From the IMG/VR virus record IMGVR_UViG_3300023055_000005: DNA of 64,000 nt. One strand, given 5' to 3'. Under the pieces are notes generated by a model. The model ran no database searches. It was not told the origin of the DNA and saw nothing but the letters and a program-made list of their open reading frames with translations. This document shows, one piece after another, positions 32,316 to 64,000 of the stretch. Position 1 is the first letter of the stretch. Every line of letters begins with the position of its first letter. The position numbers were made by a program, and so were the translations under genes. This DNA is from a virus (taxonomy: Duplodnaviria > Caudoviricetes).

Positions 32316-32825
32316 ATGGCAGCTCTCCTGATCTATCCCCGCCGCTACTTCCGCCGCGTTCCGACGGGCTCGGGTGTGATTCGTGTCAATGGTGATCCGG
32401 AGGTCAACAAGATCTTCGATGACTTCATGGCACAGAAGCTCAACACCCAGTCCTTCGCCAAGCGTGCAGAAGTGTTGGTCGTGGCCGGCCGTCTGCTCCA
32501 CAACTTCGTGGAGTGGGCCAAGGACCAGCAGGCCAACGCAAACCTGCGGGGATACAACTACGACTTCCTGGTCGATACGGTCAACTTCATCAATTCCGGC
32601 AAGCGAAAGATGTCGGCGGTGAACTGGCTGGATCTGGTCAACGAAGACGATTTCCCCACGCATGGGAACAATGTCGTTCGCGCCGTGCCCTTGGATTTGG
32701 GCATGTTTGAGAACGATTCGGCCTATGTTGTGACCAAGTGGTGCTCGCGTGATGGCGGCTTCGAGGACATGATTCTGTCATTGTACCTCATCTTCGGCCG
32801 CAGCAGTCAGAACCGCAACGACTGA
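32316..32825 (+). CDS. Putative virion protein
   Basis: AAGGAG Shine-Dalgarno; structural operon. Confidence 0.75.
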   Translation: MAALLIYPRRYFRRVPTGSGVIRVNGDPEVNKIFDDFMAQKLNTQSFAKRAEVLVVAGRLLHNFVEWAKDQQANANLRGYNYDFLVDTVNFINSGKRKMSAVNWLDLVNEDDFPTHGNNVVRAVPLDLGMFENDSAYVVTKWCSRDGGFEDMILSLYLIFGRSSQNRND

Positions 32826-33021: not shown

Positions 33022-34353
33022 ATGAGCGTTCGCGACTTTTTCGCCTCCCTGGAATCGGAAGATGAGACCGGTGCAGAGCCGATCGAAGAAACCGGTGCCG
33101 ACAGCCTCGAAGCCGATCTGACCGAAGTGGAAGAAGCCGGCAGCGAAGCCGACGCCGATGCCTCGGCCGTCGAGCAGCTGGAAGAAACCGCCGAATCCCT
33201 GGAATCCATCGCCCTGTCGCTGGAAGCCGACGCCCAGAACGGCGGCCTGGATCCGGTTGCTGCCCGTTACGCGCAGCGCGCCATCGACTTCGCCCTGCGC
33301 CCGCTGGGCCCGTCGGCCAAGTTCACCCACGCCTCGCTCGAATCCTTCGGCGGCGACAGCTCCAAGCGTGATGCCACCCTGTCCATGGAAGCCGACGTCA
33401 AGGCGTGGCTGAAGAAGGTCTGGGAAGCCATCAAGCGTGCCATCGCCAAGGTCCGCGACAGCATCAAGAAGCTGTTCATCAAGCTCTTCGCTGCTGCCCC
33501 GAAGCTGAAGCGCCGCGCCGAAGCCCTGCAGACCGCTGCCAAGGGCCTGGAAGGCGAGCCGAAGGAAAAGCAGCTGGTCATCCCCGGCAACGTCGCCTCC
33601 GGCATCGCCGTCGGCAAGGGCCTGACCTCGCTGTCCGACACCGCCAAGAACCTGCGCGAGCAGGGCGACTGGGTGTTCGACGACTTCTTCAAGAAGACCT
33701 GGGCCTACGGCGAATCCTTCGCCTCGGCGCTGGCCGGCTGGAAGTTCGACAGCGAGAAGAACTTCGATGCCTCGGCCAAGGCCGTCGACACCCTGATCGG
33801 CGCCGTGCCGACCGTCGCCGGTGCCAAGGTCTCCTCGGGTGACAAGCGCTTCCAGGGTCTGGAAGTCGACCGTTCGGAAGCCCTGCCGGGCAACCAGGCC
33901 GTCTTCGTGACCTGCAAGAAGGCTGGTGCCACCCTGGCCTCGAAGATCGAGACCCTGGGCACCTACAACGTCAGCGTCCGTGACTTCACCGCCACCCCGG
34001 TGGAAGTGAAGGAAGTGAAGCTGTCGGTGCCGAGCAAGCAGGAGCTGGAGAAGGTCGGCGAAGAAATCGCTGCCCTGGCCGGCCGCGTGACGAAGTACAA
34101 CAACAGCTTCCAGTCGATCGACGCCCTGATCAACAAGGTGAAGACCGCTGGCGACCAGTTCTCGGCCGCTGCCGAGAAGTCGGACAAGCTGACCGGCGAG
34201 AACAAGGCTTCGGCCCGCCAGATCCTGTCGGCGGCCAAGGCTTGCGCCAACGTGATCGACGCGCCGGCTGCGGCGATGACCCGCTACCTGATCACCACGG
34301 GCGCCAAGGTTCTGGCCCTGGGCGAGAAGGCTGCTGGCATGTACAAGGCCTAA
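33022..34353 (+). CDS. Internal head (inner-body/ejection) protein, phiKZ gp93-family-like
   Basis: Acidic propeptide with repeated SLE/SME sites, then VKAWLKKVWEAIKRAIAKV amphipathic helix; very strong codon bias. Confidence 0.85.
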   Translation: MSVRDFFASLESEDETGAEPIEETGADSLEADLTEVEEAGSEADADASAVEQLEETAESLESIALSLEADAQNGGLDPVAARYAQRAIDFALRPLGPSAKFTHASLESFGGDSSKRDATLSMEADVKAWLKKVWEAIKRAIAKVRDSIKKLFIKLFAAAPKLKRRAEALQTAAKGLEGEPKEKQLVIPGNVASGIAVGKGLTSLSDTAKNLREQGDWVFDDFFKKTWAYGESFASALAGWKFDSEKNFDASAKAVDTLIGAVPTVAGAKVSSGDKRFQGLEVDRSEALPGNQAVFVTCKKAGATLASKIETLGTYNVSVRDFTATPVEVKEVKLSVPSKQELEKVGEEIAALAGRVTKYNNSFQSIDALINKVKTAGDQFSAAAEKSDKLTGENKASARQILSAAKACANVIDAPAAAMTRYLITTGAKVLALGEKAAGMYKA

Positions 34354-36394: not shown

Positions 36395-38104
36395 ATGCCC
36401 AGCGGTTCCATCACGATCGACGAGACCTACGACAGCATCAGCCGTCCTGTGGTTTATGATGTCGTCCGCCAGATCCAGAAGCTCACGGGCGCTCCGATCG
36501 GCACCACCATTCAGTACATCGGTGTATCCGGTGCAAGCTACATGAATGGCTCGACCCTGACTCCAGCCGAAGAGTTCAACACCTTCTCCCATGCAAACAA
36601 GATGCGTGTGGAAGTGGTGGAGGACGTGGACGAGCGTTCATTCCTGACCATGAACACGCACCAGAAAAATGCCATCGCAATCTTCAGCGATCAGACATTG
36701 GGTGTGTTGGTGTATCCGATCTACTCGGCTACCATGGCCAAGATCAACTTCCAGTTCCGTGCAGAGAATGCCACCATCGCCGAACGCTTCCGTAATGACC
36801 TGCGCATGCGCACGGCCAAGGGGCGGATGGAAAACCTGCACGTCATCGACTACAGCTACTCCTTCCCCAAAGAGTTCCAGTACATCCTTTCCCGTATCTA
36901 CGATCTGCGCGAGACGCAGGCTGGCTACGGACAGGAGTTCGAGGAGTATCTGGAAGAGCACGGCACCAACAAGCTGACTGTGGTCGTCAATCAGGCTGGT
37001 GAACAACCGCGCTTGGTGATTGCCGAACAGCAGATTCAGGTGCAGGGCTGGTTCGAGTTCTCCGCGTTGCCCGATCATCCCACCAAGGATGGTGAAGCCT
37101 CTGCGGTGCAGTTCGACTTCAGCTACGTCTTCCAGTACGACAAGGTCACCGGTGCTCACATCGAGTACCCGATGGTCGTGCACAACAGCGTGATCCCTGA
37201 GGACATTCGTCCTGACATCAGTGAGGGCATCTACTCGCCCACTCAGCACAACCGAGCTCAGTCGTTTGACACGCTGGCGCTGGAGCAGTTCAGCAAACTG
37301 TTCCGTCCTGAAGGTTGCTGCTTGGATGGCGTGGTGTTGCCCAACTTCGATGACTGGGTTCCGCGTCGTGTTCCGCTGGATACTTCTTCGATCCTCACGC
37401 TGATGATCGCAGCCAGTCCTGAGTCCGACCGCAACCTGGGTAACCTGAACGAACTGGGTTACTGGAAGATCGACGAAGACCTCATGGCCTTCATGATCGC
37501 TGAGCGTCGCCACATTCCCTTCCTCGGCAAGTCGCTGGTACACATGTGCCTGTTTGAGGGCAACATGCCTCTGACCGATGGGGCCGTGTCACTGGAGGAG
37601 GATGGCTGCGCTATCAAGCGGCTGGAGATCGACATGCGCAAGGTCTACCACCTGCGTCTGTCCATGGTCAACCAGTTGCAGCGCATCGCTCCGGAAGATT
37701 GGAACCGCATGCGTAAGCATGGCAAGGCTGTGGTCAAGCTGCTCACCCAGATCCAGTGCGGCTTTGCTAGCGGTGCGTGGATTCCTGAGCTGCTGCCCAA
37801 TGGCTCGGTTGCCATGCGTGACATCGAGATCATCATCAAGCGCGTGCAGTTGCAGCGCGGCAATCACTTCAACGGCGTGGAGCACGTAATGCTCACCGTT
37901 GGCAACTACACGCTTGTAACCTGGAGAAAAGAAGATGTCCTTCGTAACGGGACCGAATCCGGAGAAAGCTCCTCCGAAACCGACCCTTCAAAAGACTGGG
38001 GCAGTCGTGACGAATCCCGAGTATCGCGGTGTGACGGTGAATACCCGACACGTCCCGAGCTCTTCCCTGCTGACCTACGTCAGCGGCCAAAGCTGGATCG
38101 TTGA
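36395..38104 (+). CDS. Virion structural protein (phiKZ gp98-like position)
   Basis: 569 aa; GAGG Shine-Dalgarno; structural cluster; last ~55 codons overlap the next gene. Confidence 0.75.
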   Translation: MPSGSITIDETYDSISRPVVYDVVRQIQKLTGAPIGTTIQYIGVSGASYMNGSTLTPAEEFNTFSHANKMRVEVVEDVDERSFLTMNTHQKNAIAIFSDQTLGVLVYPIYSATMAKINFQFRAENATIAERFRNDLRMRTAKGRMENLHVIDYSYSFPKEFQYILSRIYDLRETQAGYGQEFEEYLEEHGTNKLTVVVNQAGEQPRLVIAEQQIQVQGWFEFSALPDHPTKDGEASAVQFDFSYVFQYDKVTGAHIEYPMVVHNSVIPEDIRPDISEGIYSPTQHNRAQSFDTLALEQFSKLFRPEGCCLDGVVLPNFDDWVPRRVPLDTSSILTLMIAASPESDRNLGNLNELGYWKIDEDLMAFMIAERRHIPFLGKSLVHMCLFEGNMPLTDGAVSLEEDGCAIKRLEIDMRKVYHLRLSMVNQLQRIAPEDWNRMRKHGKAVVKLLTQIQCGFASGAWIPELLPNGSVAMRDIEIIIKRVQLQRGNHFNGVEHVMLTVGNYTLVTWRKEDVLRNGTESGESSSETDPSKDWGSRDESRVSRCDGEYPTRPELFPADLRQRPKLDR

Positions 38105-53079: not shown

Positions 53080-53210
53080 GTATTTTCGAACTCCCCCTGG
53101 CTATGAAATAGGGGAAGCAGAGACCGCTCTTACGCGTAGCGTTATGCCTTAAATATTAGGGGAGGCGTAGCCTCCCTTTCCTTTTATCTTTTGCCCTTCA
53201 GGAACTGCAA

Positions 53211-53795
53211 ATGGAAAAGTACGGACCGCATGCAAGTTCACCTGCAGACCGGATCAACACAGCTGAGCTGTTGCAACACCAGATCACAGCAGCGTTGAAC
53301 AGGCATGCGACTTACTCCAAGGTCGGAACCATTGAACAGCGTATCACCTACCCGCTGGACTTCTACTGCTATCGCACGGTGCGGTATGGAGGCCCCAAGG
53401 GTACTGGCAAGAGCACTGCCATCGCCAAGCTTGCTCGACCGGGGGACATGATCATCGTCTCCTCCCAGCCGTGTCGTAACAGGATGGCGACCTTGCTGGT
53501 GGAGAACGGCAAGAGCGACAATGACATCACGATCTTGGACGCCGAAGAGTTCATGGACAAGATCTTCGCCAAACTGCCTGAGGAACCACCTGCAATCCTC
53601 AACAAGCGTCATGAAGTTCACTCGGCAGGTGATGAAGGTATCCGTCGCGTGTTTGTAGATGACGTCATGCTCATCTGCCCACGTTTCCAGAAGATGGTGC
53701 ACGGTACACCTGTCCCGGCCTTCGTACCGGCGGTGTTGCGCTATGGCTGCCATTGCAGCTACCCCCAGCCTGTCATTGTGCTGGTGAACCTGTGA
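53211..53795 (+). CDS. Small P-loop NTPase
   Basis: Walker A GGPKGTGKST; Walker-B-like RVFVDD. Confidence 0.7.
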   Translation: MEKYGPHASSPADRINTAELLQHQITAALNRHATYSKVGTIEQRITYPLDFYCYRTVRYGGPKGTGKSTAIAKLARPGDMIIVSSQPCRNRMATLLVENGKSDNDITILDAEEFMDKIFAKLPEEPPAILNKRHEVHSAGDEGIRRVFVDDVMLICPRFQKMVHGTPVPAFVPAVLRYGCHCSYPQPVIVLVNL

Positions 53796-55302: not shown

Positions 55303-56495
55303 CGCAGCATTACGTTGGAACCAAGGTCATCCAGGCATACGAGAACGAGAAGGACGGCAAGCCCGGCTTCGCCGTTCAGTACCCGGATGGCTACACCTCC
55401 TGGTCCCCGAAGGAAGTCTTCGAAGAAGCTTACCTTCCGATCGGCGTCATCCCGGCCGGTACGCCGGACTTCGTGCAGCGCATGATTGCTGAACGTGTCC
55501 AGCTCAACGACCGTAAGAATAAGCTTAACGATTTCTACGTCGAAGCCAAGAAGAACGGCGGTCACCCGGATCTTCAGGGCGACGAGCTGTCGGACATCGA
55601 CGATCAGCTTGAACGGATGGTCGAATATCTCCAAGCACTGGATCAGCGCATCCAACGCCACGGCTTCATCTTCCACGACACCGGCCGTGTGCTCACGGTG
55701 CAGCAGGCCCAGGTCGAAAGCTATACCCGGATCAAAGAAATCATCGTCCAGATCATCGCCGCCGCGGAGAAGAAGGGCGAGCCGCTGGACCTTGCTGCCA
55801 CGCAGGATATCCCGAAGGCAATCCGCGAGAAAATCTTCCTCGAATTCGACGCGGGCAGTGTAGTTGAATGCTCTTTCGAGAATGCCTATTGGAATGTGAG
55901 GGTGAGGGGGATGCTGCTGTTCAGCCGCTCGGTCCACGAGTACAAGATCCGCCACCTGGAATGCTACCGTAGCACCGTCGACAAGCGCATCGCCCAGGCT
56001 ATCCAAAGTGCCTATGCGGAAGTCACCTCGATTGGCAATACCGCCAATGATGTCGTGTTCATGAACTACCTCTCTACGCACTTCCTCAAGAAGGTCGGGG
56101 ACATGGGTCAGGTCGCCATCGCCGGCCGCCGCATCGACGACTACTGGAAGTTCATTGTCGATTACACCGATGACGTGCTGCAGGGAATCTTCCTCTGCTA
56201 CAATTCGGTCAGATACTCGGCTTTCAGGGTGGAGATGCTGAGTCTGAACTCTCGCCAGTCTCGCTTCGAGCAGGCGCTGGACTCCTTGCGCACGCTCGTC
56301 CCCGACAGTGTCAGGGAAGCAATCCTTACCAAGCTCGATGAAAGCATCTGCCCGGTGGGCGACGTACTTGGGCCGTTGCCAACCCTTACTATCACCCGCC
56401 GCGGCGCGGCTATTGTCTACAAGGATGAAGCCTTGGAGCGTCTGAACCAGATGATCCAGGCGGCCGTCGCCAAGATGCAGGAGGCCAAGGCATGA
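55299..56495 (+). CDS. Multidomain phage protein (YxGTK...YPDGY.SWSPK module, coiled-coil module, unknown C-terminal region)
   Basis: HYVGTKVIQA...YPDGYTSWSPKEVFEEAY; FVQRMIAERVQLNDRKNKL...QLERMVEYLQALDQRI. Confidence 0.8.
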   Translation: MTQHYVGTKVIQAYENEKDGKPGFAVQYPDGYTSWSPKEVFEEAYLPIGVIPAGTPDFVQRMIAERVQLNDRKNKLNDFYVEAKKNGGHPDLQGDELSDIDDQLERMVEYLQALDQRIQRHGFIFHDTGRVLTVQQAQVESYTRIKEIIVQIIAAAEKKGEPLDLAATQDIPKAIREKIFLEFDAGSVVECSFENAYWNVRVRGMLLFSRSVHEYKIRHLECYRSTVDKRIAQAIQSAYAEVTSIGNTANDVVFMNYLSTHFLKKVGDMGQVAIAGRRIDDYWKFIVDYTDDVLQGIFLCYNSVRYSAFRVEMLSLNSRQSRFEQALDSLRTLVPDSVREAILTKLDESICPVGDVLGPLPTLTITRRGAAIVYKDEALERLNQMIQAAVAKMQEAKA

Positions 56496-57220
56496 CCGAC
56501 TCCTACGGAAACTACGCGCTGCTCGTATCTTTCCCGGATCAGAGCGAGACCTTCACCCTCGGCGTAGAGGCCGGTGTGTTCTGGCAGCGCCTGTCCATGG
56601 GTGAACGTGAGTTTGAGTACTTGGCTCACACCAAGAACCTCGCATGCCTGGAACGGATGGCCGCGTCGATGGATCTCCAGGTCAAGACCATCGCCAGTGA
56701 CGATGAGTGGACGACCCTCGGTATCTACCCGAAGGCGGCGGAGAAAGAAAGGCCGCGGCTGATGCTGATCAACGGTGGCATTCACGTGAGCACGGAGAAG
56801 ATGGAGGGCGTGTCTGAAGCACTCGCCAATCATGAACTCCAACGCACATTGGTGCAGGTGCTCGATGGCAAGTACCGTGCCGGTGAGGTTGTCACTGTCC
56901 GCCGCAATCTCGAAGGCATCATCCCGCTGTTCGGCAATATCTTCAGCGCAGACACCACCTTCATCGTCAACACCAACGCCACCTTCGACGAGCTGCAGGC
57001 AGTCATCGAACCGCTGCTCGTGCCCATCGGCAGTAAGCGTTCGCAGGTCTACCTGTCGTACTCGCTGCCGGTTGTCGATGCGTGCTATGCCAAGTATGTG
57101 GTGATCGATCGTCGCCGCATGCCTGGCAGTGAGAGCGATGCCTTCCAGCGTACCGAGGCCTTGATCAAGGGTATTACCAAGATCGCCAAGGTGCCGCCGG
57201 TGTTCATCGTAATGGACTAA
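56492..57220 (+). CDS. Hypothetical protein
   Basis: GGAGG Shine-Dalgarno; ATGA overlap. Confidence 0.75.
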   Translation: MTDSYGNYALLVSFPDQSETFTLGVEAGVFWQRLSMGEREFEYLAHTKNLACLERMAASMDLQVKTIASDDEWTTLGIYPKAAEKERPRLMLINGGIHVSTEKMEGVSEALANHELQRTLVQVLDGKYRAGEVVTVRRNLEGIIPLFGNIFSADTTFIVNTNATFDELQAVIEPLLVPIGSKRSQVYLSYSLPVVDACYAKYVVIDRRRMPGSESDAFQRTEALIKGITKIAKVPPVFIVMD

Positions 57221-57223
57221 GTG

Positions 57224-57268
57224 AACGGGAGGGGCTTCGGCCCCTCCCTCTATGTCTTTTTTTTTGTC
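57224..57268 (+). terminator. Intrinsic terminator
   Basis: GGGAGGGGC-TTCG-GCCCCTCCC, then TATG and a T tract. Confidence 0.8.
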
Positions 57269-57325
57269 TGGTTTTCTGCCCACTATATGGGGCGCTTTCG
57301 CCCGTCTACGCAGCTAACCGGGATC

Positions 57326-57718
57326 ATGGCAATGTTGAAACACTTCGTACTACTGAAAACTTTCGAGCACGGCTGGCAGGCCAAGCAGTTTGTTCTGATC
57401 CTGCGTCAGCGCCTGACCAGCTCCAAGTCCTTCCTGGGCGCATGGAGCTGGGCACAGACGACGATGACTCTGCCCGACCACCCAGAGCAATTCGAAGGTC
57501 CAGTCATTCTGGAGAACGGCTATCGCGACGTGGCCTGCTATCGCGACAAGTGCCGCAACGGCGAAGGTGACGTGTACACCTATCCGGCCATGAAGGACTG
57601 GATCGAAGGTGGGTTCTGCGGTGAGCCGCCGTCCCCGCCACAAGAGTCCGACGACCAACAGACGTTGGGCGACTTGGGCAACATTTCCAAACTTACCAAG
57701 TCTGAGGACGCGCCATGA
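57326..57718 (+). CDS. Hypothetical protein
   Basis: Start likely ATG 57326 or 57332; ATGA overlap with the next gene. Confidence 0.65.
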   Translation: MAMLKHFVLLKTFEHGWQAKQFVLILRQRLTSSKSFLGAWSWAQTTMTLPDHPEQFEGPVILENGYRDVACYRDKCRNGEGDVYTYPAMKDWIEGGFCGEPPSPPQESDDQQTLGDLGNISKLTKSEDAP

Positions 57719-58146
57719 GCAGTACCAACAAACGACAGTGCTGCTACCTCGGTGAAGGTCGCTATCTGGTCCGCAGTGCAGAAGGCTACGAAGAAGCCAA
57801 GCAGCAAGCGCTCAAGCAGAGCGGCCTGCGTGGTCCGGATGTCAAGATCAAGTACACCGGCGTCTTCCGCTTCGGCTATCCGGCGGTGGTCTGGTTCTGG
57901 CCGATCTTCCGTGGGAACATGCGTTGGGACATCTACGCCTGCTCCTACCACCTGAACACGTACATGGAGTTCCTCCACAAGCGCCTGAAGGAGCTGGAGA
58001 ACCATGACGTGCTGATCGCCGAGCTGGGCTATACCAAGCTGGCCGAGGTGGCCGCCGGTCGTGCAGCCGATGATCCGGAGTTCCACGCTGATCTTCTGCG
58101 CCTGCTCGAAGAAGGCGCTGCCTCCAACGAAACCAAGGAACCCTGA
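57715..58146 (+). CDS. Hypothetical protein
   Basis: GAGG Shine-Dalgarno. Confidence 0.72.
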   Translation: MSSTNKRQCCYLGEGRYLVRSAEGYEEAKQQALKQSGLRGPDVKIKYTGVFRFGYPAVVWFWPIFRGNMRWDIYACSYHLNTYMEFLHKRLKELENHDVLIAELGYTKLAEVAAGRAADDPEFHADLLRLLEEGAASNETKEP

Positions 58147-58376
58147 TGTTCATCGGTCTGTTCAAAATGGCACTCGGCATCGGCGGGTTGTTCTTCACCC
58201 TGCTGGGCATGTTCGTGTTCTTCAAGGTGTTCATCGCGCCCAAGGTTGCGCCGATGGATACCTCCAACCGGATCAACCACCTGCGCCTGCTTTGGTTCGT
58301 GCTGGCCAGGCCGGAACTGTTCGTCGACACGTTCCCGTGGCTGAAGAACGATGAGCTGAAGAACGTCACCAAGTGA
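58146..58376 (+). CDS. Small membrane protein
   Basis: TGATG coupling; long hydrophobic N-terminus. Confidence 0.7.
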   Translation: MFIGLFKMALGIGGLFFTLLGMFVFFKVFIAPKVAPMDTSNRINHLRLLWFVLARPELFVDTFPWLKNDELKNVTK

Positions 58377-58410
58377 CATATCGCCCCTCCCAGACGGGAG
58401 GGGCTTTATG
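58377..58410. repeat. CATA-hairpin-TATG element; inverted near-copy of 8432-8466
   Basis: CATATCGCCCCTCCCAGACGGGAGGGGCTTTATG. Confidence 0.85.
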
Positions 58411-58412
58411 CC

Positions 58413-58450
58413 GATTCCAATATGTTTCAACCCTATATAACTCATGTGAG
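58413..58450 (+). promoter_or_regulatory. Phage early-type promoter
   Basis: GATTCCAATATGTTTCAACCCTATATAACTCATGTGAG. Confidence 0.75.
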
Positions 58451-58500
58451 GTTCCAATCAAAAGACCTCATTCCCTTCTTAAACTCAATGGAGATTCAAC

Positions 58501-58707
58501 ATGAACAAGTCCACCCCGAAGACCAACAACGTCGCCGCTCGTCGTATCGCTCCGGCACGTAAGCCCCTCATCAAGCGCCTTGGTTCGGCTGTCGTCGATA
58601 CCGCCAAGGACAAGCAGGTCCAGATTGTTGTCGGTGGTTCGCTCGCAGTTTGCGCGCTGATCATCACCGGCGCAGTCCTGGCTGATAAGTACCTGGAACG
58701 TAACTAA
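58501..58707 (+). CDS. Small tail-anchored membrane protein with basic N-terminus
   Basis: GGAG Shine-Dalgarno; IVVGGSLAVCALIITGAVLA. Confidence 0.75.
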   Translation: MNKSTPKTNNVAARRIAPARKPLIKRLGSAVVDTAKDKQVQIVVGGSLAVCALIITGAVLADKYLERN

Positions 58708-58781
58708 CTCCAGACCGCAGCAAACTGAGCCGTCATTTCGGCGGCTCTTTTATTTCCCTTCCAATAATGGAGTAACAAAGA

Positions 58782-59807
58782 ATGAAAAAGAAAGTAACTG
58801 AAACGAAGAACGCCGCAACTACCGTGGACAACACCGAGTACTACGAACTGATTGCCAAGCGCAAGAAGCTCGCCGCTCGTGCCAAGAAGCTGACGGACGC
58901 TGGCAAGCCGGTCCCGACCAAGCTTCGCGACGAAATGGCTGCCCTGAAACGACAGACCAACAAGTCCTCCATCGTCCTCGGCAAGGGTCTCAAGACCCTG
59001 GCTACCAAGCCGAACGATGTGAAGGAAGTCAAGGTGGTTGACATCACCACCACGACCACCATCACCGAACTGGCAAAGGCGCTGGGCATGCGTCCGAGCG
59101 GACTGGTGAGCCGCCTGTTCCGTCATGGGACTACTGCGGTGAGCGGTGACAAGGTGACCACGCTCAAGAGCGCCGTCAAGGTTCTCAACGAGATCGGCTC
59201 GAAGGAAGGCTTCAAGGTCCAGCTCGTCGAATCCACTGCGGTGGACAAGCTCACCGATGCGTTCAGCACTGCGACCAAGAATCGCCGTGTGCGCAAGAAG
59301 CCGCTGACCAAGATCGCCATTTCCCCGCGTATCACCATCGAGCAGCTGGCTGAAAAGCTGGACATCACCAAGAACGCGCTGGTCAAGCACTACTTCGCCG
59401 AGAAGAAGATCGTGTCCACCTCGCAGACCGTTGCGTCGGCAGGTCGCATCCTCGCTCGCAAGATCGCTCACGAGCTGGGCTTCGAGTTGACCTACACCAA
59501 GGTCGGCAAGGTGTCCAAGACGGTCTCCCAGTCCGAAGCGGGTCTCACCATGCGTCAGCTGGAAAACGAGATCTTCAAGGTCGACGGTCTGCGCATCGTC
59601 TTCCGCGTCGATCAGAACGTTCGCTCGGGGATTGCCAAGTGGGGTCAGCGTATGCCTGACAGCGCCACGATCTCCAGCCTGCACGCTCGGCTGAAGCGGC
59701 ACCACGCGGACTTCAAGGACTGCCAGTTTGTCATCACCGACAAGAACGGCGACGCCTTCACGTCCACCAGCAACCGCAAGCAGAAGCTCTCGGCTCTGGC
59801 TTTCTAA
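58782..59807 (+). CDS. Lys-rich protein with two IF2-N-like domains and a small C-terminal domain
   Basis: TITELAKALGMRPSGLVSRLFRHG...AVKVLNEIG and ITIEQLAEKLDITKNALVKHYF...LARKIAHELG; GGAG Shine-Dalgarno. Confidence 0.75.
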   Translation: MKKKVTETKNAATTVDNTEYYELIAKRKKLAARAKKLTDAGKPVPTKLRDEMAALKRQTNKSSIVLGKGLKTLATKPNDVKEVKVVDITTTTTITELAKALGMRPSGLVSRLFRHGTTAVSGDKVTTLKSAVKVLNEIGSKEGFKVQLVESTAVDKLTDAFSTATKNRRVRKKPLTKIAISPRITIEQLAEKLDITKNALVKHYFAEKKIVSTSQTVASAGRILARKIAHELGFELTYTKVGKVSKTVSQSEAGLTMRQLENEIFKVDGLRIVFRVDQNVRSGIAKWGQRMPDSATISSLHARLKRHHADFKDCQFVITDKNGDAFTSTSNRKQKLSALAF

Positions 59808-59843
59808 GCAGTACCCACCAACCACTGGTATAAGGAGATAGAA

Positions 59844-60284
59844 GTGAACGTTGGTGTTTGTGAGAAGGTTGTCCCTCAGCGTCGTGAGTTCTACGTGACG
59901 CACTCGTTTGAGGGTAACCTCTACTTCAGGAATCTCCACCCGATGAATGTCGAGGAGCCTGTCCTGAAATTGACGTGTGAGATCCCTACGCTCGGCATGG
60001 AACATGCTGATCGGAATGGTCGCATTGACGTCATGAAGTTGTGCATCTTGAAGAAGTTCGAGGCTCAAGGTCTGAACGGTATGGAACTGGGCGCCCTGTT
60101 AGGGTTGCTCAGTCCCCGCTGCATATGCCCTGAGTTACTCGATGAGCTGCCTGCGACTGTGCTGAACCATGTACAGATCGAGGATGAACGGCTGATCAAA
60201 ATCTCCGGTACGCATTGGGGCGAATATCTGGAAGCTAACTACCTGGCGGTAAGTTGGCCCAGTGAAAAGTTCCTCGGCTGCTGA
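59844..60284 (+). CDS. Hypothetical protein
   Basis: AAGGAG Shine-Dalgarno before GTG; AT-richer codon usage. Confidence 0.65.
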   Translation: MNVGVCEKVVPQRREFYVTHSFEGNLYFRNLHPMNVEEPVLKLTCEIPTLGMEHADRNGRIDVMKLCILKKFEAQGLNGMELGALLGLLSPRCICPELLDELPATVLNHVQIEDERLIKISGTHWGEYLEANYLAVSWPSEKFLGC

Positions 60285-60377
60285 GAAAGAGTAGTAACTG
60301 GCTGTACTCTGCTGTACCATGTATGGCGGAGGTAACCCCTCCGCCTTTTCTCGCTTAAACCTAATGGAGTTTCAAAT

Positions 60378-60920
60378 ATGTGGGGCAATTACGTCGGAAC
60401 GTTGGAAATCAGCCGTGCCAAGAGCACCGCTCATCGCTCGGGTCGCATCATGTTCTTCGATCGCGCTACTGACCTGTTCGCTCACGTCCTGTTCGATCTG
60501 GACCCGATCAACTACGAAGACCCCAAGGACTACCGCGGTCTGTTCGTGGTGGATGAGATCTTCACCAACATCCTCGATGAAAACGAAGCCGACCGCTTCC
60601 GCGACATCATCGCGCTGTCGATCCACTTCCTGTTCAACAACAAGGACTTCAAGGATCGGCACCGCATCACTCACACCGAGATCCTCATCGGCGTTGGCGA
60701 GCTGGATGAGAATCCTGTCCACAGCTCGCTGATGCAGAGCACGACCAAGTTCCTGGTCGACGAGCATCACGAGGAAGGTGACAATGTCATCACCATCGAG
60801 AAGCTGCGCGAGTTCGCTCGCAACGACTCGGTCATGAACAAGCAGATCGGCATGTACACCGCCGGTGAGCGCGAGCCCACCATGGTGATCGACTGCACGT
60901 CGGCATTCGCCACGCTGTAA
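60378..60920 (+). CDS. Hypothetical protein
   Basis: GGAG Shine-Dalgarno. Confidence 0.8.
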   Translation: MWGNYVGTLEISRAKSTAHRSGRIMFFDRATDLFAHVLFDLDPINYEDPKDYRGLFVVDEIFTNILDENEADRFRDIIALSIHFLFNNKDFKDRHRITHTEILIGVGELDENPVHSSLMQSTTKFLVDEHHEEGDNVITIEKLREFARNDSVMNKQIGMYTAGEREPTMVIDCTSAFATL

Positions 60921-60925
60921 CATCC

Positions 60926-60960
60926 TAGAGGGCAGGACTTCGGTTCTGCCCCCTTTCCTT
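60926..60960 (+). terminator. Intrinsic terminator
   Basis: GGGCAGGAC-TTCG-GTTCTGCCC then a T-rich tract. Confidence 0.7.
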
Positions 60961-60989
60961 TCGTAATACCCCCCAATGGAGAAATTCGT

Positions 60990-61493
60990 ATGAACAGCAA
61001 GACCCCGCGTTACATAGCGGTCCTTGACATGCTGAACATCGGCCGCATGACCAACGCCGACGGTGACCTCATGGTCATCGATACCACCACCGCTGAACAC
61101 GTTTTTCTTTATTTGGCAATTCGTGAAGAAGGAAGTGAAGAAGAGGGGGATTATGGTGTCGAGTTGGAGATAGTCGGCGCACGCGACAACATTCCCCAGA
61201 ACCCGGTCGAAGAGGACAACCTGGCAGCTGCTCGGCGACTGGCCAACGGTGCCTACAGCATCCTCTGCAGCGCTCTGGACATCATCCGGGAAAATCCAGA
61301 AAGCGAAGTCTTCGCCCACCGCGCCCTGGCTAAGGCCTCCGTCAAATACAACTGCGAAGATAGCGAACATCTGACTGAGAAAGTGCTGTACTCGGTCATG
61401 CAATCGAATGATGCCTGTCATGAAAAAGTCGAACTGACCATCCTGACCGACAAGTTGATCAGGCGCACCTTTGATCTGGGTGATCGTACCTAA
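60990..61493 (+). CDS. Hypothetical acidic protein
   Basis: GGAG Shine-Dalgarno. Confidence 0.72.
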   Translation: MNSKTPRYIAVLDMLNIGRMTNADGDLMVIDTTTAEHVFLYLAIREEGSEEEGDYGVELEIVGARDNIPQNPVEEDNLAAARRLANGAYSILCSALDIIRENPESEVFAHRALAKASVKYNCEDSEHLTEKVLYSVMQSNDACHEKVELTILTDKLIRRTFDLGDRT

Positions 61494-61532
61494 GTCCCAC
61501 ACTCGCCCAACAACTACCCAACCGAGGTTCCC

Positions 61533-61787
61533 ATGGCCAGCAAAGCCGTCAAGCGGTTGACCGCAAGGTATACCCGCAAGCGCAACTCGTTCCTGCTCTA
61601 CGCAGCCCTGATGATGATCGTCTGTTTCTCGATGGGACTCATCCTTCCCAACGCCAGTGTGTTCGGCAGTTACAAGTGGGCGGTACTGGGAGTGCAGCTG
61701 GGATTGTTCTTCTTCGCCGCAGTCGCCGCAGTCAAGAAGTTCTGGCCGGCATACTACGACTACCTCCGATTGCGGAGTGTGGCGTAA
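61533..61787 (+). CDS. Two-pass membrane protein
   Basis: GAGG Shine-Dalgarno; basic N-terminus and two TM segments. Confidence 0.72.
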   Translation: MASKAVKRLTARYTRKRNSFLLYAALMMIVCFSMGLILPNASVFGSYKWAVLGVQLGLFFFAAVAAVKKFWPAYYDYLRLRSVA

Positions 61788-61797
61788 TTTGCTACAC

Positions 61798-62092
61798 GAG
61801 CAGGCCTATAATCTGTACAAGTCAGTGTGCACTGCAGCTCCTCCGATAACCCGAATGTAGGCACGGCCATGCGTGCTGATCATCTATCCCGTTCGTGTAC
61901 GGGAAAGCTCTTTAGGGGGAGCCATAATCGGAGTCAAAGCGCAGCACATACCCTGCATCAACATCGTTTGTCTGATCGACCTACTTGCTCGGGTTGCTAG
62001 GATCGCGGAGTTGTTGCCTGACTCTTCTGCTAGGTTGGGGTGGCAGTTTATTCCAAGCATTAGGCCTGCTCCTTCGGGGGCAGGCTTTATGC
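61798..62092 (+). ncRNA. Candidate structured non-coding RNA or attenuator
   Basis: 11-bp end-to-end stem (61798-61808 with 62061-62071), an internal four-way junction (61841-61933), further hairpins and a terminal UUCG hairpin; ORFs here lack a Shine-Dalgarno and coding bias. Confidence 0.45.
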
Positions 62093-62128
62093 CCTTATGC
62101 GCTTTTCGAATACCACAACGGAGTTCCA

Positions 62129-62293
62129 ATGACTGAAGATAAGTTCACCAAGTGTAAGCCGGGTTCCTTCCTCGACAAGATGTACCGCGAGAAGTTCGGG
62201 CAGGTTTACATTGACTACATTGAAGTGGAAGAGCAGTGCACCTCGCGCTCCTCCACTGGGCCGGAGTTTGAGTTCGAGGATCTCGACGCATGA
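62129..62293 (+). CDS. Small hypothetical protein
   Basis: GGAG Shine-Dalgarno before ATG 62129; ATGA overlap with the next gene. Confidence 0.6.
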   Translation: MTEDKFTKCKPGSFLDKMYREKFGQVYIDYIEVEEQCTSRSSTGPEFEFEDLDA

Positions 62294-62823
62294 ACTTCAT
62301 GCCCCTGCTCTGCAATAAGCTGTGCATCTGCAAGTCCTCGTTCGGCTGGCTCATCATGACGCCGCTGTTCGTCTACATGTCCTCCTCTTCGGCGATGATG
62401 GGTCCGATCGTCTCCGGGTCCACCGCACTCACGATCAACGGCTGGTTGGTCACGTGGAAGTGGAAAGGCAAGCTGGTGTTCATGTGGTCCTTCACTGAAC
62501 TGCTCCCCGCGGTTAAGAAGTGGATCCTTGGACCGAATACCAACGAGTTCAAGGAGACCGGGGCGTGGACCTACGCCTACCTGCCTGATGGCTCGTCGGC
62601 GATCGTCAAAGAGGGCTACCTCACCGTCCACAATCGCCGCTGGCGTAAGAGCGTTCCACATGGCCGTCTGTACGAGGTCGTTGGCTTCCCCGGTTATCTC
62701 AAGGCGCCATGCCTTCAAAGCGCCGCAGAAAAGGCCGAAGCATCCTTCAAGGCACTCGAAGAGTTGTCGGGACTGGTCAACGAACTGCAAACCGATATCA
62801 ACAACTCTGCACTGAAAGCGTAA
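62290..62823 (+). CDS. Hypothetical protein, hydrophobic N-terminus
   Basis: 177 aa in operon. Confidence 0.65.
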   Translation: MNFMPLLCNKLCICKSSFGWLIMTPLFVYMSSSSAMMGPIVSGSTALTINGWLVTWKWKGKLVFMWSFTELLPAVKKWILGPNTNEFKETGAWTYAYLPDGSSAIVKEGYLTVHNRRWRKSVPHGRLYEVVGFPGYLKAPCLQSAAEKAEASFKALEELSGLVNELQTDINNSALKA

Positions 62824-62872
62824 CACCCTCCTTCGCAGTATCACTAAAACACAACGTATCACGGAGATAGAC

Positions 62873-63379
62873 ATGAGCAACATTGCACAGCTGACCCAGA
62901 CCGTTTCCCTCGAAGTCAATGCCTACACCGATCAGGCACGACTCCAGGAGATCGCAGCCAAGCTGCGTTCGATGATGGTCCAGGACGGCCAGGATGAAGC
63001 AAACCTGACGACCCACGCTTCGTCCGACAACAAGCCGGAATATCCGACGGCTGTGATCAAGACCGAGTTCCGCTGCAAGGGTTTTCGCAACATGCTGGAG
63101 ATCGACATCCAGCTCAGCGAAAGCCTGCTGACCAACAACCTGCTGATGGTGGACCACAAACGTCGCCTGCAAGCCTACGCCGCCGGTAAGGAAGCGCTGT
63201 GGGTCATCAACGAGTTGAACAAGACTCTGCTGGATGATCCGGAAAGTTCCAACCCGCAGCTGGACAAGTACATCAACCGCGGCCAGCGCATCATCCTGCG
63301 GAAAGAGTACGACGCTCACGCATTCCACCGCGAACTGGTCAAGCTGCAGGACGAAATCCTCGGCTCCCTCCCCAAGTAA
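62873..63379 (+). CDS. Hypothetical protein
   Basis: GGAG Shine-Dalgarno. Confidence 0.78.
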   Translation: MSNIAQLTQTVSLEVNAYTDQARLQEIAAKLRSMMVQDGQDEANLTTHASSDNKPEYPTAVIKTEFRCKGFRNMLEIDIQLSESLLTNNLLMVDHKRRLQAYAAGKEALWVINELNKTLLDDPESSNPQLDKYINRGQRIILRKEYDAHAFHRELVKLQDEILGSLPK

Positions 63380-63450
63380 CTGACCCACCCTCTCAGGGCG
63401 GGGGCACAACCCGCCCTTTCCTTTGAGCAATACCCTTAACGGAGTTTCAC

Positions 63451-64000
63451 ATGACCAACGTACAGCTTACCCAGAAACTGGACTTCCCCGGCTGGCATGA
63501 TGTCAATGGCATCCCCAGTGGACTGTGGGACGATCCCAACTGCGACTTCGAGTCCTACATCGAGGGTCGCTACAACTACGCCGATGTTGAGTTCCATCAC
63601 CCGCAGTTCCTGCCCTACGGCGTTCGTGAACAGGCTCGTGCCGATACCAGCCTGAGCCGTGGCATGAATGAGTTCAAGACCGACCTGCGTTACGTGGTCA
63701 CCAACGGCATGCTGGTGTTTGAAACCTACTACACCTACAGCGGCGCCAGCGTTGATCGGTTCCCGGCAGTTGCTGTACTGACCCCGGACGAACTACTGGT
63801 CTTCGGCGCACCTGACTGGGGCCTGTGGGCGGATCGTACTTTCACCAAGGACGATTACCTGCGCTTCAACATCGCCAAGCTGCGTCTGTCGTTGCCGCTG
63901 CTGATGCGGCACAACCTGATCATGCAAGGCGACAACAAGTACGTCTTCGCCGAGATCTATCGCTCCAACCGCTCGGCCAACACCAGCAACCGTGCAGCCA
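63451..64000 (+). CDS. Hypothetical protein, runs off window end (partial)
   Basis: GGAGTTTCAC-ATG; open frame MTNVQLTQKLDFPGWHDV... to base 64000. Confidence 0.75.
   Translation, partial: MTNVQLTQKLDFPGWHDVNGIPSGLWDDPNCDFESYIEGRYNYADVEFHHPQFLPYGVREQARADTSLSRGMNEFKTDLRYVVTNGMLVFETYYTYSGASVDRFPAVAVLTPDELLVFGAPDWGLWADRTFTKDDYLRFNIAKLRLSLPLLMRHNLIMQGDNKYVFAEIYRSNRSANTSNRAA

Follow-up and report, generated by a model that had tools for sequence, protein, structure and literature searches.

A conserved structured element, predicted to be a clade-specific non-coding RNA, in a soil jumbo phage related to Xanthomonas phage Xoo-sp14

The non-coding gap of 342 nt at positions 61788-62129 of the window, i.e. 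of the 64,000-nucleotide stretch of viral DNA analyzed here (IMG/VR record IMGVR_UViG_3300023055_000005), probably encodes a structured non-coding RNA (ncRNA) on the + strand that is specific to a clade of Xoo-sp14-like nucleus-forming jumbo phages. This reading is drawn from sequence comparison and structure modelling, and transcription of the element is a prediction. Judging from the aligned copies, the conserved structured non-coding element is very probably a functional RNA and represents a new family in a small phage clade. A preliminary description of the window had suggested a new phage ncRNA; in support of this suggestion, six sequences show conservation and covariation, and no Rfam family or tRNA was matched. 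The RNA would be about 270 nt long, with a core of approximately 205 nt closed by the long-range helix P1, followed by two hairpins, the last of which is the ordinary transcription-punctuation hairpin of this phage. It would act in its own right and not as a terminator/antiterminator switch in cis. Most likely it would be stable, with the invariant junction and loops serving as binding sites for a protein of phage or host or for another RNA.

The soil jumbo phage from which the window derives is a relative of Xanthomonas phage Xoo-sp14 (MT939492). Positions 21.1-48.9 kb of the window are 84.5% identical to Xoo-sp14, and the right-hand part can be aligned in pieces only, mostly at 64-80% identity. 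The DNA polymerase shares 94% identity with the Xoo-sp14 enzyme; its next relatives all belong to chimallivirus-type jumbo phages and share 47% identity or less. The gap is located between the gene of an 84-aa predicted membrane protein (61533..61787), which forms the 5' boundary of the element, and the gene of a 54-aa acidic protein (62129..62293, placed from the ORF list and the sequence) with the SD sequence GGAG at 62120-23. The latter is followed by overlapping genes for proteins of 177 aa and 168 aa. All genes around the gap are on the + strand and all are ORFans; homologs of the 84-aa and 54-aa proteins were found in the Xoo-sp14 clade only. No Pfam or PHROG family was matched by the neighbouring proteins, which gave no pointer to an RNA-binding partner. 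The homologous gap of Xoo-sp14 is 340 nt long, is annotated as intergenic and is the longest among the first 67 genes, so that the earlier remark on the longest non-coding gap holds in the Xoo-sp14 annotation. An N-terminal mimic of IF2 is encoded approximately 2 kb upstream of the RNA element, within the same early operon.

Five homologous copies of the element were found via the flanking proteins, namely in Xoo-sp14 (L001), in an IMG/VR contig of 230 kb (L002) and in the Logan contigs L039, L050 and L051. Together with the window they make up a six-sequence alignment of three lineages, and the gene context of the element is identical in every copy. A covariance model of 233 positions (R1) was used for whole-genome searches and detected exactly one copy each in Xoo-sp14 and in the IMG/VR relative, both of which are complete genomes. 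Nothing credible was found with R1 in seven other chimalliviruses, the Xanthomonas phages RTH11 and LucasX, Erwinia phage pEa_SNUABM_54, Burkholderia phage FLC9, Vibrio phage pVa-21, phiKZ and 201phi2-1. When IMG/VR, the JGI metagenomes and 185k species genomes were scanned with exact and degenerate motifs, nothing beyond the known IMG/VR contig and chance matches came up. The weak covariance-model matches among the hits of these scans (9-16 bits) share the seeded 19-mer, and no Rfam family was present in any of them; one (L106) codes for the histidine-kinase ILDLSRLESGKL motif. Within the reach of these searches, the element appears to be confined to the Xoo-sp14 clade. No mention of an ncRNA in Xoo-sp14 was found in the literature searched.

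The consensus fold was computed with RNAalifold on four sequences, and the pair counts were repeated on six. In this fold a closing helix encloses the four-way junction and the variable hairpin; the small hairpin and the terminal hairpin, the latter extended by flanks of the GCAUA/UAUGC type, come after it, all on the + strand. The RNA body (61820..62023, ~205 nt), which is present both in the RNAalifold consensus and in the minimum free energy (MFE) structure of the window, is closed by P1, where AGUCAG at 61820-25 pairs with CUGACU at 62018-23 in six of six sequences without variation. The four-way-junction domain (61826..61948) comprises P2 (61826-39 with 61938-48), in which one U-A pair is replaced by C-G, and P3, the invariant closing stem of the junction (CTCCGAT at 61841-47 with ATCGGAG at 61927-33), which encloses three hairpins at 61855-83 (core 61860-65 with 61872-77), 61887-61904 and 61907-61922. 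One-sided changes in this domain leave the pairing intact (G-U to A-U, U-G to U-A and U-A to U-G), and one apical pair is broken in one of the six sequences. The four-way junction with its three hairpins had been proposed in the preliminary description, whose quoted strings were all found again where it had placed them; it was reproduced as the RNAfold MFE structure of the gap, of the isolated domain and of positions 61818-62092.

The variable hairpin domain (61955..62017) carries a conserved apical stem-loop (61978-82 with 61991-95, loop ACUUGCUC). Folded separately for the three lineages it gave the same long hairpin each time, despite the low identity of 64-70%, with the compensatory replacements U-G to G-C and A-U to G-C. 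It is followed, after the 3' strand of P1, by the small hairpin CUGCUA-GGUUGGGG-UGGCAG and the sequence UUUAUU (62027..62052), a terminator-like match with one compensatory change from U-A to C-G. Judged by its sequence, the small hairpin is a possible weak terminator of the RNA's own. Its stem (CUGCUA at 62027-32 with UGGCAG at 62041-46) is a conserved alternative to the previously proposed stem TGCC..ACTC/GGGT-GGCA, which lies outside the consensus. The small-hairpin loop UUGGG (62035-39) is complementary to the joiner CCCGA (61850-54), and AGGG (61914-17) is complementary to CCCU (61951-54); all four segments are invariant in the six sequences. On this complementarity CCCGA/UUGGG is a candidate pseudoknot, and both pairs of segments are candidate tertiary contacts.

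The consensus contains 80 pairs, and 98.3% of the 480 sequence/pair cells are paired in this fold, which was derived from these same sequences. Partner-slid controls, in which the 3' partners were moved by 1-3 columns, had 35-43% of cells paired. Compensatory double changes were observed at 6 pairs, compared to 0-1 in the slid controls (six sequences, three lineages), and are distributed over P2 (1), the variable hairpin (2), the small hairpin (1) and the terminator (2). Nine more pairs show one-sided changes with pairing kept; the few pair breaks are located at helix ends. Most helices, including P1 and P3, are invariant, and the covariation amounts to about five or six independent events in three close lineages. 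G-U pairs account for 46 of the 480 paired cells (counted from the per-pair table). Since such pairs are frequent and would be A-C mismatches on the - strand, the folded molecule would be the + strand RNA.

Folding energies were compared with those of shuffled sequences using RNAfold. The whole 343-nt gap including flanks is unexceptional (z = -1.40), and its MFE structure still contains the four-way junction. For the isolated junction domain (-48.4 kcal/mol) z is -2.84, with 1 of 200 shuffles as good, and for positions 61818-62092, again with the four-way junction in the MFE structure, z is -2.60. The Xoo-sp14 counterpart folds into the same four-way junction with z = -2.59.

Conservation is unevenly distributed along the gap. 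Between lineages, P1 and the four-way-junction domain are 92-99% identical, the 3' strand of P1 together with the small hairpin 94-100%, and the terminator region 76-83% (94-100% within lineages). The variable hairpin domain reaches just 64-70% between subclades, and the leader of the downstream gene 59-84%. For comparison, identity between lineages is 59-80% at third codon positions of the adjacent 84-aa gene, and the neighbouring 177-aa protein shares 47% identity with its Xoo-sp14 counterpart. Positions 61780-61960 form the longest block with at least 92% identity to Xoo-sp14 within the divergent segment of 48.9-64 kb. The rise in identity coincides with the stop codon of the upstream gene, a sharp fall follows the terminal hairpin, and the internal variable domain has diverged as much as neutral sites. 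The jump at the stop codon and the neutral-looking domain in the middle fit purifying selection on a structured molecule rather than a recent transfer of DNA, and the pattern as a whole is consistent with purifying selection acting on the gap at the nucleotide level.

No match above the gathering scores of Rfam 15 was found in the whole window. With the threshold relaxed to E<=10, positions 61500-62400 gave matches at chance level only (E ~0.4-7), which lie over the 3' hairpins. Among these sub-threshold matches are STnc70 (18.4 bits), the Na+ aptamer (16.2 bits) and a toxic sRNA (14.2 bits). The Na+ aptamer, which is the best riboswitch match, has a gathering score of 40.5 and E = 1.3, and it covers the terminator and not the junction. 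ARAGORN detected no genes in the window, and the Rfam models of tRNA, tmRNA and Y-RNA did not match the element. The junction, which had been called loosely tRNA-like, resembles a tRNA in its 7-bp closing stem and three hairpins. It differs in its joiners of 12, 9, 2 and 4 nt, in its stems of 5-6 bp with 6-nt loops and in that no T-loop or D-loop signature was seen; with no ARAGORN gene and no Rfam tRNA match, the likeness was not upheld.

Nucleus-forming jumbo phages keep transcription apart from translation and possess their own RNA polymerases. To our knowledge, hardly anything is known of the ncRNAs of these phages beyond a handful of mapped sRNAs, whose function is unknown. The sRNAs of 201phi2-1 and phiKZ were mapped by ONT-cappable-seq, are smaller than 250 nt and are often derived from 5'-UTRs by premature termination (PMC11512511); one chimallivirus sRNA is conserved by position among giant phages (PMC11512511). 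Like these sRNAs, e.g. sRNA005 upstream of the gp277/gp182 tail gene, the element described here would be a non-coding structured RNA of a nucleus-forming jumbo phage with an intergenic or 5'-UTR site, a hairpin terminator just before a gene and conservation by position. The RNA of the Xoo-sp14 clade differs in being bigger and multi-domain, with a four-way junction, and in its location in an early ORFan operon as opposed to a tail gene. The 201phi2-1 and phiKZ sRNAs were filtered to less than 250 nt and have measured start and stop sites, whereas the RNA of the Xoo-sp14 clade is known from sequence alone; the covariance model has no counterpart in 201phi2-1 or phiKZ. A multi-domain RNA of ~270 nt with a slower evolution than that seen at third codon positions of a neighbouring gene is a concrete and cheap experimental target in Xoo-sp14 and Xanthomonas oryzae, which can be cultivated.

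Upstream of P1, the 32 nt that follow the stop codon of the 84-aa gene (61788..61819, + strand) form a conserved, single-stranded 5' element, TTTGCTACAC-NNN-CAGRCY-TATWAT-CTGTACA, which includes the 11-mer at 61798-61808 singled out in the preliminary description. It is 84-100% identical between lineages and consists of two conserved blocks, TTTGCTACAC and TATWATCTGTACA, which flank a variable spacer in the middle of the element. A TATWAT box (TATAAT or TATTAT) is located at 61807-12, ~7 nt before P1. A sigma-70 scan of the 5' element returned no site, the spacer between TTGCTA and the box being merely 12 nt, and the element could not be aligned with the promoter copies of the window, of which four are early and three of the middle type. 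It is unique in the window, and a search allowing up to 3 mismatches showed it to be unique in the genomes of Xoo-sp14 and the IMG/VR relative as well. The 5' element may serve as a unique promoter, or else it may be transcribed as the 5' part of the RNA. There is nearly an even chance that the RNA is the structured 3' end of an early-operon transcript from the 58413 promoter, possibly processed. That a unique promoter in 61788-61819 yields a stand-alone RNA starting near 61819 is a possibility somewhat short of even. Under either origin the transcript would end at 62085-62092 or, possibly, close to 62050 at the weak hairpin. The stretch is contained in at least 21 soil 'metatranscriptome' runs. 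In one of three RNA runs the whole 234-kb genome is a single contig, in the other two it is split into contigs of 12-77 kb, and in all three the coverage of the stretch is continuous with flat depth. As coverage in the RNA runs is flat and a DNA run looks alike, these data are uninformative on transcription, transcript ends or level.

Two more specific functions can be considered for the predicted RNA. It is conceivable, at long odds, that it is a trans-acting RNA of early takeover that binds the ribosome or a translation factor as scaffold or decoy, or that it assists the non-canonical phage RNA polymerase in cis as an antitermination RNA; if true, either would constitute a new functional RNA class for nucleus-forming phages. 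Processive antitermination of the put/EAR type would mean that the element, acting in cis, enables the non-canonical phage RNA polymerase to pass the terminator hairpins of the early operon. The element does lie within an early operon with internal terminator hairpins (60930-51, 62064-85 and 63395-417), its single-copy position in cis agrees with such a role, and antitermination in chimalliviruses has been proposed by the authors of the 201phi2-1 study (PMC11512511). However, no similarity to put, EAR or nut RNAs was found with Rfam, and one copy per genome stands against many such terminators in the phage. Moreover, known put and EAR elements are far smaller than ~205-270 nt. This type of antitermination is therefore an unlikely role for the RNA.

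A signal at the DNA level, such as a promoter or operator array or a replication or packaging site, or else a recently exchanged segment, would also explain a conserved block without involving RNA. The 5' block does resemble two conserved boxes with a variable spacer, and transcription of the element is a prediction only. However, the compensatory changes and the many strand-specific G-U pairs favour RNA, and conservation tracks helices and loops, with a variable hairpin that keeps its shape in between. A recent transfer is at odds with the sharp drops of identity at both edges and with the divergence of the internal domain to the level of neutral sites. A DNA-level or transfer origin is thus improbable, and the structured RNA remains the preferred reading.

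The terminal hairpin GCCUGCUCC-UUCG-GGGGCAGGC (62064-85), with the flanks GCAUUAG and UUUAUGC, occupies 62057..62092 on the + strand. Four arm variants preserve it at -18 to -20 kcal/mol, the differences including two compensatory pairs and three wobble changes, and its tail is UUUAU or GUUAU, a poor U-tract. The hairpin belongs to a phage-wide family in which CATA, a GC hairpin often with a UUCG loop, and (T)TATG(C/T)C follow one another. About a dozen such elements are located at gene boundaries on the + strand of the window (8463, 9705, 16119, 25980, 35776, 41356, 43580, 49416, 51557, 57251, 58407 and 62088). Mirror copies occur on the - strand, and the elements can often be read both ways. 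The element looks like a terminator fused to a TATG start signal of the nvRNAP type. TATG is the late-promoter motif of the phiKZ nvRNAP, the start site being its G (PMC4666361). The sequence TTTATGCCCTT 3' of the terminal hairpin is invariant in the six sequences except for its first base, which is G in Xoo-sp14. Taken together with the phiKZ motif, this invariance indicates that the downstream genes probably have a start signal of their own, and TATG at 62088-91 is likely to be such a signal of the nvRNAP type.

The preliminary description had put forward a terminator/antiterminator alternative. Its underlying observations are correct: GAGCAGGCCTA (61798-61808) and TAGGCCTGCTC (62061-62071) are exact reverse complements of each other, and the latter overlaps the 5' arm of the hairpin GCCTGCTCC-TTCG-GGGGCAGGC (62064-62085). 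As a cis-acting attenuator or riboswitch, the element would control read-through into the downstream genes by ligand- or factor-dependent pairing of 61798-808 with 62061-71 at the expense of the terminator. In favour of this, all 11 bp form in the window with a stability equal to that of the terminator (-22.8 vs -20.2 kcal/mol), a perfect inverted repeat of at least 11 nt occurs in the gap in only 12 of 1000 dinucleotide shuffles, P1 would place the two partners near each other, and the element is located immediately upstream of a gene cluster. However, the pairing is complete (11/11 pairs) in the window only and is missing from all five relatives, in which the duplex energy of the two segments is -3.7 to -7.6 kcal/mol as compared to -22.8 kcal/mol in the window. 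Over the six sequences 53% of cells are paired, compared to 52.3% with shuffled and 52.5% with -1 slid partners. The terminator arms covary among themselves instead, no other conserved alternative pairing was found, no riboswitch family of Rfam was matched, and the hairpin is a generic family member followed by the conserved TATG start motif.

Since the competing pairing is limited to the window and the terminator arms are conserved, the switch cannot be a conserved function, and since the terminal hairpin is one of about a dozen generic elements, it is probably not a dedicated expression platform, and a riboswitch-like switch is unsupported. Ligand- or factor-dependent attenuation is accordingly a quite improbable function of the element. 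With riboswitches and attenuators it shares a structured leader and a GC-rich hairpin upstream of genes, and, in the phage of the window only, a competing 11-bp pairing; it differs in that this pairing is unconserved, the hairpin is generic with a poor U-tract, and no aptamer family was matched. The attractive riboswitch-like reading is thereby corrected to a hairpin that is generic punctuation and a competing pairing that is the peculiarity of one lineage. In this one phage the 11-mer could weaken termination, since P1 would draw both segments together.

That the gap encodes a small protein, by an ATG frame at 61870-62001 (43 aa) or a GTG frame at 61873-62136 (87 aa), is highly improbable: both frames are open in the window, but in L039 the 43-aa frame is interrupted by a stop at codon 32, the subclades encode unrelated C-terminal thirds in this frame, the 87-aa frame is ~25 codons shorter in Xoo-sp14 and L002 and extends into the start of the next gene in L039, the changes are mainly non-synonymous although the nucleotides are highly conserved, and there is no SD sequence, the ATG being placed inside a hairpin loop. 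The frame at 61873-62136, which had been named beforehand as a potential refuter of the ncRNA, is thus not conserved between lineages.

Several further features were noted in the early region and in the phage genome. The leaders at 60952-60989 and 62100-62128, both of which follow terminator hairpins, have TTTCG(T)AATACC..AAYGGAG in common, which may be a common leader or promoter-proximal motif. Further short blocks with at least 92% identity to Xoo-sp14 are located at 53100-53240 and 57260-57430, in an early region that is otherwise ~70% identical. They match Xoo-sp14 positions 32595-32734 and 37553-37723, respectively, each consists of an intergenic stretch and a gene start, and they could be conserved leaders or promoters. 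Xoo-sp14 positions 33448-33758 (L038, corresponding to ~53.9-54.3 kb of the window) contain an unannotated gap of 309 nt, the second-longest in the first 50 kb. A hairpin of 29-30 nt at 57226-57256, of the type GGGAGGGGC-TTCG-GCCCCTCCC, is present at five or more other sites on both strands of the 234-kb genome. The early-promoter block at 58377-58413 (~37 nt) also recurs, and assemblers join across the hairpin and promoter repeats.

Positions 56001-64000 are contained, along with the whole phage genome, in at least 21 soil 'metatranscriptome' runs and 3 DNA runs with 24 study codes from 2018-2019. Phage depth in four runs is ~21-35x in libraries of 165-357 million letters, corresponding to ~2-5% of each library. 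This odd abundance in soil suggests a bloom sampled in one campaign, carry-over of DNA into RNA libraries, or a shared contaminant or spike-in.
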